DNA from: a virus
Lineage: Duplodnaviria > Heunggongvirae > Uroviricota > Caudoviricetes
Virus record (IMG/VR): IMGVR_UViG_2645727539_000015
Direction: 5' to 3' (one strand)
Length of the DNA: 18,384 nucleotides
Part shown: positions 1-5,528 of the stretch, piece by piece
Numbering within the stretch: the stretch's first letter is position 1
How the letters are laid out: each line of letters opens with the position of its first letter
Notes under the pieces: generated by a model
Told to the model about the DNA's origin: nothing
The model's database searches: none
What the model saw: the letters and a program-made list of their open reading frames with translations, nothing else
Translations under genes and position numbers: made by a program

Positions 1-93
1 TATCCGGAAGGTCGATGGGGAGTTGAATTTAATGATCATGAATTTGCTCTATTTGATTTTTTCAAAAATGGAAAAAGAAAAAAAACAGCATTT

Positions 94-327
94 ATGGCAA
101 TTCAGTTTATGGAAAGACATGAGGATGAAACAAGAACGGAGATAACAATTGATGTCAGTTTATCAGGTGTTGTGATTTCGGAGGGAGCCAGAACACCTAA
201 AAGACGTCCGTGGGTTGTGACTGGTCCCGGGCGTGGAGAGCTAAGAACTTATTCAACGTTAGACAAAGCTGCTACAGAGTTTTTTAAGCGACTTTCATTG
301 ATGGTATCTATGGCGATTGAAACATAA
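94..327 (+). CDS. hypothetical small phage protein (77 aa)
   Basis: ORF from the six-frame track; no recognisable motif and no clear Shine-Dalgarno; a weak GC hairpin plus T6 lies downstream at 421-438. Confidence 0.3.
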   Translation: MAIQFMERHEDETRTEITIDVSLSGVVISEGARTPKRRPWVVTGPGRGELRTYSTLDKAATEFFKRLSLMVSMAIET

Positions 328-561
328 GGGATATAAAGATACCGAGGAAATGATTTGTGTTATAACAAAAACCATCTTAATCTGTTAAGAGTGGTCACTC
401 CGTCATACAGCTTAAACCTGCCGCCTGGCGGGTTTTTTATGCCCAAAATCGCGTCAGTACAGTAAACACGCTGGTGGTTGCGAATACAGGTCTTTCAGCT
501 TGCTGGCTTTTTCGACAAGAGTTATTGGTATGTCACGTTAACCGGAAAAGGGAAAAAAGGC

Positions 562-2296: not shown

Positions 2297-2428
2297 GTAT
2301 CCGCGCCACGCCCGGCGCATATCAACCACAGAGCCTTTCGGGGGTGAGCTTACGGAGTGGTCAGTGTGACTTTCTCTGTGGGCAGATCGCTCCCGGGCGT
2401 TGGCTCACCCACCCAAAGGAACGTCACG

Positions 2429-2860
2429 ATGTTTGGAATCTTCAAAAAGAAAACCCGCAGAGCGGCAGCGGAAATTAAAAAGTTTGAAAAACGCGATCTG
2501 GCCCAGGCGGTGATTAACGCCGCATACCTGGTGGCTTATGCCGATGGTGAATGTGAGGCTTCCGAGAAAGCGAAGATCGAACAGGTATTACGTAACCAGC
2601 CCGCCTTGTCCGCGTTTACGTCAGAAATTAATGCGATTGGCGCAACCATCACTGGTCAGCTTGACACCAACTTTAAAATTGGTCGTCGTGCGGCGTTACG
2701 TGAGATCGAGGATGTGAAACACGATATGCGAGAAGCGGAAGATGTGCTGGATGTGGCGGTGGCCATTGCGGAATCAGATGGCGAAATTGAGCCTGAAGAG
2801 CGCAAGGTGCTGGAAGAGATAGCCGGTGTTCTGGGCCTTCGTCTGGAGAATCACCTGTGA
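2429..2860 (+). CDS. TerB-like (tellurite-resistance TerB domain family) protein, 143 aa
   Basis: ATG 2429 with AAAGGA 6-7 nt upstream. Two copies of the TerB-type signature hydrophobic-A-x-A-D/S-G-E (AYLVAYADGECEASE and VAIAESDGEIEPEE) in a helical, acidic protein. The track ORF start at 2357 has no RBS. Confidence 0.6.
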   Translation: MFGIFKKKTRRAAAEIKKFEKRDLAQAVINAAYLVAYADGECEASEKAKIEQVLRNQPALSAFTSEINAIGATITGQLDTNFKIGRRAALREIEDVKHDMREAEDVLDVAVAIAESDGEIEPEERKVLEEIAGVLGLRLENHL

Positions 2861-3021
2861 CGGTAAAACTGCGCCTGGCCATTGTGGTAGTTCTGCTGTT
2901 TCTTGTCGTGATGGTGGACTTCAGCAGCCGGATAATGTCAGTGCTGGCAGATGGGATGCTGGTGGCTGGTGTTGTGGTTGTTGTTTTCCCGTTGCTGAAA
3001 AAGAAAACAACAGGTGGTTAG
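2857..3021 (+). CDS. possible small membrane peptide (54 aa), start overlapping the TerB-like stop
   Basis: GTG 2857 overlaps stop TGA 2858-2860 (GTGA); GGAGAA lies 7 nt upstream. Translation VTVKLRLAIVVVLLFLVVMVDF...GMLVAGVVVVVFPLLKKKTTGG has two hydrophobic segments and a basic C-terminus. Absent from the ORF track; the overlapping track frame 2826..3125 is Trp/Cys-rich and looks non-coding. Confidence 0.3.
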   Translation: MTVKLRLAIVVVLLFLVVMVDFSSRIMSVLADGMLVAGVVVVVFPLLKKKTTGG

Positions 3022-3263
3022 CAGGGTATCAGTTAGCCGGCGAAATTTTTAAATACCTCACAATTCAGCAAGTTTATGATTGTCTGGCTGACTGCGAATT
3101 TGTTAAAAATCGCGTCGCATGGTGAATCCCCCTCAGCGGCGGGGCATATCAGTACAGGTGTTTTCGTTTAGCCTTATCCTTTCTGTGCGGGTTCAGGTAC
3201 TGATACTGAACTCACCGGGAGGCACCCGGCACCATGCAGTATACAGAGATTAGGCATATCACC

Positions 3264-3289
3264 AGCCCCCTCTTCGGAGGGGGCTTTTT
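3264..3289 (+). terminator. rho-independent terminator (9-bp stem, UUCG tetraloop, T5)
   Basis: AGCCCCCTC-TTCG-GAGGGGGCT followed by TTTTT 3285-3289. Confidence 0.6.
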
Positions 3290-3386
3290 ACATGCAAAAA
3301 AAGCCCGCGTAGGGGGCGGGCGGTAAGAAATAAAACAAAACGTGAAGAAAATTATTCAGCTATTGGATAATACCTGAGGATTATGA

Positions 3387-3418
3387 GGCTGCGCAACTGC
3401 GCGGCCTTTTTCGTTTTT
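3387..3418 (+). terminator. rho-independent terminator (8-bp GC stem, loop AACT, T5-CG-T5)
   Basis: GGCTGCGC-AACT-GCGCGGCC (one G-U) followed by TTTTTCGTTTTT, about 80 nt upstream of the esterase start. Confidence 0.6.
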
Positions 3419-3497
3419 ACTGGCAGTTGTCTTTTGTGTTTTCAGACTTCAGTCAGTCCTTATCTGATTCAACCCACTATCCCGGCCGGGAGGATTC

Positions 3498-5411
3498 ATG
3501 GCATTTAAACATTATGATGTGGTCAGGGCTGCGTCGCCTTCAGACCTTGCGGAGCGACTGACACAAAAACTGAAGGAAGGCTGGCAGCCGTTTGGCAGCC
3601 CGGTCGCCATTACCCCTTATACCCTGATGCAGGCGATTGCCGCAGAAGGGGATGTCACCACGCCTGTCGTGGTGACACCGGAGGAAGGCGGTGCGGTGGT
3701 GAGCGATCCGACCCGTGAGCCTGAATATTACTATGTGCTGGTCACCGCAGGTCAGTCCAACAATATGGCAACCGGCGAAGGTATGCCCCTGCCTGACAGC
3801 TACGACCGTCCCGATCCACGCATTAAGCAGCTGGCCCGCCGCAGTGTGGTCCGACCGGGTGGTGCTGCCTGTAAATACAACGATGTGATTGAGGCCGATC
3901 ACTGTCTCCATGACGTTGAAGACATGAGTGCCAAAAATCACCCCAACGCGGACCTTTCCCGTGGTCAGTATGGTTGTGTCGGGCACGGCCTGCATATTGC
4001 CAAACGTCTTCTGCCCTATATTCCGGTTAATGCGGGGATCCTGATTGTGCCGTGCAGTCGTGGTGGCTCTGCGTTTACCGATCGTGATGAGGGTACCTAT
4101 AACCCGGAGACGGGGGCAACAGCGGATTCCTCCCGCTGGGGTGTGGGTAAACCGTTGTACATGGATTTAATTGCCCGCACGAAGGCGGCCCTTGAAAAGA
4201 ATCCGAAAAACGTCCTGCTGGCCGTGTACTGGATGCAGGGCGAGGGTGACTGTATGTCTTCAGGTTACACGGGGCATCCGGCGTTGTTTACGGCCATGGT
4301 GAAACAGTTCCGTACCGATCTAGCCGCGTATGCCGGTCAGTGCCTGGGCGGCGATGCGGCCCGTGTACCCTGGGTATGTGGTGACACCACCTTCTGGTGG
4401 AAGCAACAGTACCCGACACAATACAGCCTGGTTTATGGCGCGTACCGTAAAAACAGTGAGCCGAATGTGCATTTTGTCGAACTCATGAAGGATGAGACCG
4501 GTGCGAATGTTCCGACCAATAACCCGGCAGAAGATCCGGATGTGCCGGAAGCAAATTATTACGGTGCAGCATCACGCACGGCGGGTAACTGGACGAACCC
4601 GACACGCGCCATGCATTTCAGTTCCTGGGCCCGTCGCGGCATCCTGCCGGACCGTATAGCCACCGCAATCCTGACCCATGCAGGGCGTAACGGACCGTTC
4701 CTTGCCGGTGGAGATATAACGGAAAACTATCCGGAACCGGCAAAACCGAAGAGTAACGTTACCACCCTGTACAGCGGTGCAGAAAGTGAAGGTGCTTATG
4801 CCGAACAGGGCTGGACGCTGAGCGAAGGTAAGGCGGAAGTGGTACAGGATGAAAGCAGTGCTTCCGGACGGGCGCTGAAACTGAGCCAGGATGAAGCAAT
4901 GAACCTGAAGCTGACCCGTGAAGTGGCAAATGCGGCGGAACTGCTGAAAAACGGCGGTAAAATTACCTGTCGTTTTAAAATACCGGGAAGTGCGAACGGA
5001 AAACAGATAGCCCTGGCGATGTATCTGCAGCTGAAGGAAAGCGATATCCCTGAAGGTGTGGAATTTGCCAATAAGGCGGACGGTACCCATCCGTTCCTGG
5101 TGGCGTTCTATCTGCAGACAGAAACGGATGGCAAACTCAGTCTGATGCACAATGGTGCAGCGCAGACGCGTGTTGCGGGATACGGTACGCTGAACAGTGA
5201 ATGGCACACACTGGAGCTGGTATATCCGGGAGGAGGCCAGAACACGGTGACGCCGTATGTTGATACGGTAAAAGCTCCGACCACACAGCTGTCCTGGTTT
5301 AAATATGAAGGACAGGAGAACACGCTTATTCTGACGGATGCGTCGAATACAGCCACGTATGAAACGTGGATTGACGCGCTGACAGTGGAAGTAAACAGTC
5401 CGGCAGCCTGA
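3498..5411 (+). CDS. nanS-p: prophage NanS-p-type sialate (9-O-acetyl-Neu5Ac) O-acetylesterase, 637 aa
   Basis: ATG 3498 with GGGAGGA 5 nt upstream. N-terminus MAFKHYDVVRAASPSDLAERL is DUF1737-like, followed by a sialate-O-acetylesterase/SGNH-type region (YYYVLVTAGQSNNMATGEG) and a C-terminal domain. The position after the tRNA triplet matches the large esterase ORF of Stx-converting phages as I recall it. Confidence 0.85.
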   Translation: MAFKHYDVVRAASPSDLAERLTQKLKEGWQPFGSPVAITPYTLMQAIAAEGDVTTPVVVTPEEGGAVVSDPTREPEYYYVLVTAGQSNNMATGEGMPLPDSYDRPDPRIKQLARRSVVRPGGAACKYNDVIEADHCLHDVEDMSAKNHPNADLSRGQYGCVGHGLHIAKRLLPYIPVNAGILIVPCSRGGSAFTDRDEGTYNPETGATADSSRWGVGKPLYMDLIARTKAALEKNPKNVLLAVYWMQGEGDCMSSGYTGHPALFTAMVKQFRTDLAAYAGQCLGGDAARVPWVCGDTTFWWKQQYPTQYSLVYGAYRKNSEPNVHFVELMKDETGANVPTNNPAEDPDVPEANYYGAASRTAGNWTNPTRAMHFSSWARRGILPDRIATAILTHAGRNGPFLAGGDITENYPEPAKPKSNVTTLYSGAESEGAYAEQGWTLSEGKAEVVQDESSASGRALKLSQDEAMNLKLTREVANAAELLKNGGKITCRFKIPGSANGKQIALAMYLQLKESDIPEGVEFANKADGTHPFLVAFYLQTETDGKLSLMHNGAAQTRVAGYGTLNSEWHTLELVYPGGGQNTVTPYVDTVKAPTTQLSWFKYEGQENTLILTDASNTATYETWIDALTVEVNSPAA

Positions 5412-5528
5412 CGGTAAGCAAAAAAAAGCCCCTCCGCCATGCGGAGGGGAAGAAGTTAACCATCAAACGAATATCTATGGAATTTGCATTCTGACGTTTT
5501 TCATCATTATGCACAATACGGTGGAACG

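Follow-up and report, generated by a model that had tools for sequence, protein, structure and literature searches.

The late region and its hairpins

The window, by which we mean the whole 18,384-nt stretch analyzed here, has the gene content of the late region of a lambdoid, Stx-phage-like prophage. A DNA methylase gene (1031–1969) is followed by a tRNA-Met/Arg/Arg cluster (2010–2259), a plus-strand terminator (2273–2290), and two cargo genes, which encode TerB/TciA (2357–2860) and TciB/DUF3927 (2857–3021). Beyond these lies a plus-strand gene for a NanS-p-like sialate O-acetylesterase (3498–5411; Pfam DUF1737, SASA, and DUF6645), whose Shine–Dalgarno sequence GGGAGG and ATG (3488–3500, plus strand) are invariant in our alignment A1. 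Genes for a DUF826 protein, a P21-type holin, and a lysozyme follow in that order. The tRNAs of the 2010–2290 region carry the anticodons CAU, UCG, and UCU and are arranged like ileZ-argN-argO of Stx phages.

Positions 349–445 align with the stretch directly after the Q stop codon of an Stx2d phage and have a tR'-like terminator at their end. This PR'/tR'-like region suggests that a late transcription unit starts there, upstream of the cargo, and crosses the spacer between cargo and esterase. No Q gene is recognizable within the window, and the antiterminator gene therefore lies outside it or is of an unrecognized type; the open reading frame (ORF) ending at 327 (window 1–327) has no Pfam match and only a hit to phrog_8498, of unknown function. 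In lambdoid phages, polymerase modified by Q at PR' reads through terminators, and by analogy the same is expected of the terminators in this prophage. The first-pass annotation of this DNA had proposed that late transcription must reach the esterase and lysis genes by antitermination, which agrees with this established biology and with the presence of the PR'/tR'-like region.

That annotation had also listed four hairpins in the spacer. All four are present, give or take 1–2 nt, and sit, as described, in the spacer between the tciA/tciB cargo, which ends at 3021, and the esterase, which starts at 3498. The CCGGG/CCCGG hairpin, which had been placed one base off, pairs 3215–3219 with 3225–3229. 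The first plus-strand terminator has the form AGCCCCCTC-TTCG-GAGGGGGCT at 3264–3285, followed by T5 (dG −19.6 kcal/mol, z −4.81 vs. shuffles). Next comes A7 at 3296–3302 and GCCCGC (3303–3308) pairing with GCGGGC (3316–3321), a minus-strand terminator that our scan lists at 3321–3303 (−). The second plus-strand terminator is a 10-pair stem at 3385–3408 with TTTTTCGTTTTT running to 3418 (dG −18.7 kcal/mol, z −4.96). The opposite polarity of the terminators was thus read correctly, with 3264–3289 and 3385–3418 on the plus strand and 3321–3296 on the minus strand. Terminator-like sites are not enriched over the window as a whole (22 vs. 19.5 ± 4.8 in shuffles). These three (3264–3418), all inside 155 bp, are among the five strongest in the window and are conserved in 69 distinct related sequences. 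Compensatory changes in the first plus-strand terminator and in the minus-strand terminator, detailed below, argue for more than chance.

STnc100 on the plus strand

A cmscan search placed STnc100 (Rfam RF02076) at 3087–3295 on the plus strand; the match scores 159.9 bits (gathering score 47; E 1.9e-36) and covers the complete model (1–206 of 206). This Hfq-associated prophage sRNA gene goes by the names EcOnc27 in EHEC Sakai and sRNA103 in EDL933; the northern probe that Tree et al. (2014) used for EcOnc27 has the reverse-complement sequence of the homologous 3' part. The RNA has a core formed by a multi-helix junction (3117–3237), with a closing helix (3117–3124 with 3230–3237), P2 (3129–3133 with 3140–3144), P3 (3189–3196 with 3206–3213), and P4 (3215–3219 with 3225–3229), and ends at the intrinsic terminator with UUCG loop and U5 (3264–3289). 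P4 is the CCGGG/CCCGG hairpin; what had been listed as an element of its own is an internal helix of STnc100.

We aligned 76 homologous regions (69 distinct) and scored the Rfam structure on them. Among the 69 distinct sequences, 83.9% of the cells were paired, compared with 37%–47% when partners were slid, and both sides had changed at 12 pairs. The closing helix was 99.8% paired, with GC replaced by AU in 12 sequences; P3 was 100% paired, with compensatory changes at three pairs; and P4 was invariant (69/69). Three pairs of the terminator showed compensatory changes, in 21, 14, and two sequences. The central variable helices (4–6) received no support from the covariation count on the 69 distinct homologs.

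In Sakai, EcOnc27 is bound by Hfq in CRAC and ran at 235/247 nt on northern blots (Tree et al. 2014). The Sakai northern sizes (222 nt and 235/247 nt) suggest a 5' end ∼30 nt upstream of the Rfam start, near 3057–3062. Conservation across all contexts begins near the same positions, where the true 5' end may lie. Judging from the homologs, the window copy would likewise be expressed as an Hfq-associated RNA.

An ORF inside STnc100 (3119–3253) was considered as a protein gene and rejected. It has no Pfam match, its frame, as we read the alignments, is broken by indels in A1 and by an early stop in one related locus (L001), and it is probably a spurious gene call. Some public records carry a small ORF within STnc100 as a hypothetical protein (L002 1574–1717; L008 2586–2726). 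We also rejected a riboswitch-like pairing of P2 with the terminator: The likeness of the arms is seen in some alleles and is gone in alleles with other terminators. Separately, the scan reported a promoter-like TTAACA-16-GACAAT at 3106–3079 (−), which overlaps the invariant TTGTTAAAA of the STnc100 5' region.

An 18-mer from the STnc100 core is found across Enterobacterales, in some cases in tandem arrays of two to four copies (spaced 220–370 nt, mostly ∼250–270 nt). Genera with family cores include Kosakonia, Enterobacter, Klebsiella, Raoultella, Pantoea, Erwinia, and Salmonella (diarizonae), among others (genome contigs L183, L184, L210, L162, L181, and L177), and in Enterobacter isrI is found near such cores. 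A hairpin of the 3385–3418 type was not found next to 104 STnc100 copies of other genera. A strict perfect-stem script returned no dyads (convergent sRNA pairs) for 104 copies of other genera, a count that reflects an overly strict rule, as inspection by eye shows a dyad in Klebsiella grimontii (L154). In prophage PP6 of EPEC E2348/69 (L333, ∼1040–1055), an ISEc13 insertion deletes the 5' part of STnc100 and leaves the minus-strand sRNA, the distal hairpin, and the esterase intact.

The minus-strand sRNA, hairpin 3, and the esterase leader

The minus-strand terminator (3296–3321; stem 3321–3316 with 3308–3303, U7 at 3302–3296) lies ∼6 nt from the 3' end of STnc100 and ends an Hfq-type sRNA of the EcOnc08/21/42 group, with a predicted 66-nt short form at 3296–3361 (−). 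Its stem keeps pairing in different alleles: GCCCGCG/CGCGGGC, GCCCGCAT/ATGCGGGC, and the wholly different CCGCTC/GAGCGG. Over the 3' 66–73 nt, the window RNA is 79.7% identical to the E2348/69 copy and 75% identical to EcOnc08 of Sakai Sp4, and it shares position, strand, and flanks with the EcOnc08-type copies. The Sakai Hfq-CRAC peak EcOnc08 (1179938–1180010, minus strand) covers exactly the homologous 73 nt.

In an EPEC RIL-seq study, the E2348/69 copy is the sRNA candidate E2348C_1409.E2348C_1408.IGR, with 37 interactions and the authors' label "Homologues identified in EHEC (EcOnc08/EcOnc21/EcOnc42)." Among its partners are the cfa 5' UTR (767 chimeras), the dppA 5' UTR, and tir, and the motif of its targets, GGCA(A/G)GG, complements CCUUGCC, located just 5' of the terminator. 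The window RNA folds like a typical Hfq sRNA, with a single-stranded U-rich stretch and a putative seed adjoining the terminator. This seed (3322–3328) reads UCUUACC instead of the CCUUGCC of the E. coli copies, and the two differing positions probably mean a shifted target set. Both the expression of the RNA in its host and the targets of its seed are what we infer from the sequence.

We considered whether the minus-strand RNA is AsxR or AgvB and rejected this identity. Rfam gave no match to either RNA in the window, even at E ≤ 10, and none in an Stx2d phage that carries this cassette; the published sequences differ; and a forced alignment gave 56% identity. AsxR/AgvB-type RNAs are 51–60 nt long, with a variable 5' end and a conserved 3' region of ∼42 nt (GUAUCUCAUGC..UUGCCCGAACCCACUCGGGC), a pattern that the window RNA does not follow. 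A full-text literature search with the sRNA and hairpin sequences returned no match.

The second plus-strand terminator, hereafter hairpin 3 (3385–3418; UUUUUCGUUUUU), is a near-invariant intrinsic terminator with a 10-bp stem and is homologous to the terminator of PasD, an sRNA of EPEC. Its 5' arm and loop hold the −35 element (TTGCGC, 3396–3391) of a predicted minus-strand sigma-70 promoter (3367–3396), with an 18-nt spacer and the −10 element TATTAT (3372–3367). Transcription would start near 3361 and yield the 66-nt RNA. The −35 element matches the consensus at three of six positions, and a generic promoter scan of the window did not report TTGCGC-18-TATTAT. In Sakai Sp5, the 5' end of AsxR, mapped by RLM-RACE as a primary end (Tree et al. 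2014), lies 6 nt downstream from TAAAAT, with TTGCGC 18 nt further up, in the hairpin GGCTGCGCAACTGCGCGGCC. The motif was present in all 41 unique STnc100-linked upstream regions judged to have a minus-strand sRNA and absent from all six PasD-type regions, which have STnc100 and no minus-strand sRNA. The exact 5' ends and efficient termination at the hairpins in the window are predictions.

Reported lengths of EcOnc08-type RNAs are greater than the predicted 66 nt: 182 nt by EPEC RNA-seq boundaries and ∼271 nt by EHEC northern blot. There may thus be a second start besides that from the promoter inside hairpin 3, or the latter may be of minor importance. A second Hfq-CRAC peak, EcOnc21, lies on the minus strand over hairpin 3 and the leader region, and by analogy there may be a longer minus-strand transcript antisense to the esterase leader. 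Inspection of 3480–3620 in the window gave no convincing promoter for a 182- to 271-nt form.

Hairpin 3 is invariant in alignments A1 and A3, so covariation cannot prove an RNA structure here. Three variants of it (GCGCGGTC, GCGTGGCC, and GCGCAGCC) differ outside the −35 element and remain paired on the plus strand; the changes are from G-C to G-U, compatible with the plus strand only. PasD is a validated sRNA that ends at the homologous hairpin, so that in relatives hairpin 3 is a working plus-strand terminator. Directly downstream, the esterase mRNA leader contains a long plus-strand stem predicted by RNAalifold (3419–3426 with 3450–3457; 3429–3432 with 3444–3447). Across 37 sequences, it has two pairs with both-side changes and many changes from G-C to G-U, and a tally on the alignment (∼52 G-U vs. 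six A-C cells) favors the plus strand. In the window sequence alone, the stem is no better than shuffles (z −0.37).

We surveyed loci gathered through the N terminus of the esterase, so that the hairpin itself did not select them, and obtained 60 unique upstream regions. STnc100, hairpin 3, and the minus-strand promoter motif occurred together in 35 of them (class 1). Another six (class 2) kept the minus-strand sRNA and TTGCGC-18-TATTAT, with the 3' arm of the hairpin replaced such that no plus-strand hairpin is possible. Six regions were of the PasD class, with the STnc100 core but neither its own terminator nor the minus-strand sRNA; they end at the hairpin 3 homolog GGCTGCGCATGGCGTGGCC, followed by seven or eight T's, with the −35 element destroyed. 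The remainder were 12 regions of unrelated AT-rich sequence and one apparently truncated locus (L315) with hairpin 3 and the promoter motif and without the STnc100 core. Retention of the promoter motif where the hairpin is lost shows that the terminator and promoter functions are separable.

The block of ∼500 bp from ∼3000–3057 to the esterase start was found downstream of sequences of very different kinds: tRNAs (directly), a restriction–modification system, Q plus a small ORF, TerB/DUF3927 (tciAB), and stx2AB. Because it is kept with the esterase across varied cargo, we take the module to belong with the esterase, the conserved ORF to which it is linked, and not with the cargo. Within the module, the STnc100 central region, the type of STnc100 terminator, and the minus-strand cassette (EcOnc08-type, 49 unique; AsxR/AgvB/EcOnc03-type, 24 unique; and two others) assort independently, which indicates frequent recombination. 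Matches in the phage database fell into two classes, one aligned from the minus-strand sRNA onward and the other only from ∼3377 (promoter and hairpin) onward.

Comparison with known sRNA pairs and weighing of explanations

A convergent sRNA dyad between the moron slot and a conserved ORF was described by Tree et al. (2014; Mol Cell), and a later review speaks of dyads of Hfq-binding sRNAs and calls the reason for the arrangement unclear. The known cases are EcOnc27/AsxR in Sp5, EcOnc05/EcOnc08 in Sp4, and EcOnc06/AgvB in Sp17 (Tree et al. 2014; Sy and Tree 2021). The window shares with them a position after the cargo, before the esterase ORF, and downstream from PR' (here, tciA/tciB at 2357–3021, dyad at 3087–3361, esterase from 3498, and the PR'/tR'-like region at 349–445). 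Also shared are two convergent RNA genes with back-to-back intrinsic terminators (3264–3289 on the plus strand and 3321–3296 on the minus strand, 6 nt apart) and STnc100 as the plus-strand partner. The arrangement is that of Sakai Sp4, and published Hfq-CRAC peaks in Sp4 and Sp5 fall exactly on the homologous elements. The differences are in sequence (69%–74% identity to the Sakai and EPEC copies for STnc100, 75%–80% for the minus-strand sRNA), in cargo (tciA/tciB instead of stx), and in the minus-strand seed (UCUUACC vs. CCUUGCC). The structured spacer is therefore a diverged copy of a described convergent sRNA pair and not a new feature.

Other relatives share parts of this design. The anti-sRNAs AsxR, AgvB, and EcOnc03 (RF02703, RF02702) occupy the same slot and strand as the window RNA and have the same general layout. 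Their promoters share the window's arrangement, with the −35 element TTGCGC in hairpin 3, an 18-nt spacer, and an A/T-rich −10 element (TAAAAT in AsxR, TATTAT in the window), and their terminators resemble that of the window (GCCCG...CGGGC). The RNA bodies, in contrast, are unrelated, as the forced alignment above attests, and the EPEC homolog of the window RNA pairs with mRNAs, whereas the AsxR/AgvB type sponges sRNAs. PasD1 and PasD2 of EPEC (Pearl Mizrahi et al. 2021; Zhu, Shabalina, and Storz 2026, preprint) combine an STnc100-derived core with a terminator homologous to hairpin 3 and, like the window dyad, lie between DUF3927/TciB and the esterase; in E2348/69, PasD2 ends at GGCTGCGCATTGCGCAGCC followed by U8. 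PasD, a northern-validated Hfq sRNA, is a single RNA from core to hairpin, with neither its own upstream terminator nor a convergent sRNA, whereas in the window a canonical STnc100 is accompanied by a convergent gene, and hairpin 3 stands apart as an element of its own. Lambda 6S RNA and StxS (PR' to tR') are likewise short terminated transcripts of the late region that Q-modified polymerase reads through, but the homologous region in the window (349–445) is a different locus, ∼3 kb upstream, and no part of the dyad.

We consider it likely that 3057/3087–3418 is a convergent sRNA dyad of lambdoid/Stx-type prophages joined to the leader of the esterase/lysis operon, a reading carried by family membership, conserved structure and synteny, the conserved promoter motif, and those natural variants in which the functions of hairpin 3 are separated. 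STnc100/EcOnc27 would be made as an RNA of ∼200–230 nt, with the conserved multi-helix core that includes CCGGG/CCCGG, ending at the 3264–3289 terminator. About six bases further on, an Hfq sRNA of the EcOnc08/21/42 type, transcribed on the minus strand from TTGCGC-18-TATTAT, would end at 3321–3296. Its layout (5' region, U-rich single strand and seed, GC hairpin, U7 tail) would be that of a trans-acting RNA. Hairpin 3 would serve twice: as plus-strand RNA, it would act as a backup terminator behind that of STnc100 and in the lysogen keep moron and STnc100 transcription out of the esterase, holin, and lysozyme genes; as DNA, its 5' arm and loop would supply the −35 element of the minus-strand promoter. 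In the lytic cycle, polymerase that Q has modified at PR' would run past all of these terminators. Several features count against this reading: the heavily structured core of STnc100, which is unusual for a seed-type sRNA; the greater lengths reported for EcOnc08-type RNAs; the poor consensus match of the −35 element; the invariance of hairpin 3; and the lack of a recognizable Q gene in the window.

We regard as less likely than not a fuller reading in which the dual use of hairpin 3 is deliberate and the hairpin and the STnc100 terminator frame a recombinational "sRNA slot." Unrelated bodies (EcOnc08-type, AsxR/AgvB-type, and at least two others) would be swapped behind one shared promoter. 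Q-antiterminated late transcription across hairpin 3 would occlude the minus-strand promoter, making the minus-strand sRNA specific to lysogeny, and the altered seed UCUUACC would retarget it.

The first-pass annotation had instead read the terminators as insulators of the moron, with a possible separate short sRNA from ∼3320 to 3418. Terminators of both polarities do flank the cargo slot, another plus-strand terminator (2273–2290) precedes tciAB, and any terminator here also blocks read-through into the lysis genes. However, the elements are conserved with the esterase and not with the cargo, and each is the 3' end of an sRNA detected experimentally in relatives. The region is not a generic insulator: each of the back-to-back terminators forms the 3' end of an sRNA gene, and the two genes converge and are linked to the esterase. 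The suspicion that a small RNA is involved was right, but the RNAs are STnc100, which ends at ∼3290, and the minus-strand RNA, which ends at ∼3296. Nothing in our analysis points to a separate short transcript that ends at 3418: PasD, which ends there in relatives, starts at the position of STnc100; the promoter scan gave no plus-strand promoter for such an RNA, with none in 3290–3385; and the table of Tree et al. is without a plus-strand Hfq-CRAC peak at the homologous hairpin. By eye, the only candidate plus-strand promoter element was GATAAT (3366–3371), which we rejected, as it would yield an RNA of ∼35 nt, the hairpin alone. We regard insulation of the moron as very unlikely. A cis reading of STnc100, as a riboswitch- or attenuator-like leader that regulates whether transcription continues into the esterase and lysis genes and yields no free sRNA, strikes us as more improbable still. 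A multi-helix core directly before an intrinsic terminator, upstream of the operon and in the same orientation, would suit such a leader, and no function of STnc100 is known. Yet STnc100 occurs in many genera in tandem arrays and in contexts without hairpin 3, and a convergent gene and a second terminator stand between it and the esterase. It is also found bound to Hfq as a discrete RNA, trans partners have been recorded for the related PasD, and the likeness of P2 to a terminator arm is lost in variants with other terminators.

For the minus-strand RNA, an unlikely but more serious alternative is that it acts chiefly in cis. A 180- to 270-nt transcript from near or inside the 5' end of the esterase gene would be antisense to the leader and would damp esterase and lysis expression by pairing or by interference from convergent transcription, the short trans-acting form being secondary. 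The 182-nt and ∼271-nt sizes and the EcOnc21 peak described above point in this direction. Against it, the trans partners found by RIL-seq are numerous and have in common a motif complementary to the 3' seed, and the related AsxR-type RNAs, which occupy this position, are primary transcripts of 51–60 nt. In addition, 3480–3620 offers no convincing minus-strand promoter, and the leader stem bears the G-U signatures of the plus strand. We therefore favor the convergent dyad with a trans-acting minus-strand sRNA.

In EHEC, the dyad adjoins the Shiga toxin genes and encodes AsxR and AgvB, which rewire host sRNA networks, and a 2025 study (PMC12711010) placed SNPs in STnc100/EcOnc27 among the top genomic predictors of HUS. 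Here, a non-stx prophage with tciAB cargo bears a diverged copy of the dyad, whose minus-strand sRNA has a different seed. Such a copy fits the idea that these slots evolve fast and supply regulatory RNAs. A promoter inside a terminator, together with variants that separate the two functions, offers a testable handle on the reason for the dyad arrangement. In practice, recognizing the module prevents spurious small-ORF calls and the label of a "terminator-rich spacer."

Finally, we noted a further candidate sRNA on the minus strand at 5421–5510, directly after the esterase stop at 5411. It has a strong terminator, CCCCTCCGC-atg-GCGGAGGGG followed by U8 (5449–5429), and a −10-like CATAAT on the minus strand ∼80 nt upstream of it. 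Its position is that of PasA in EPEC and EcOnc52 in Sakai Sp4, and its sequence differs from the Sp4 copy.
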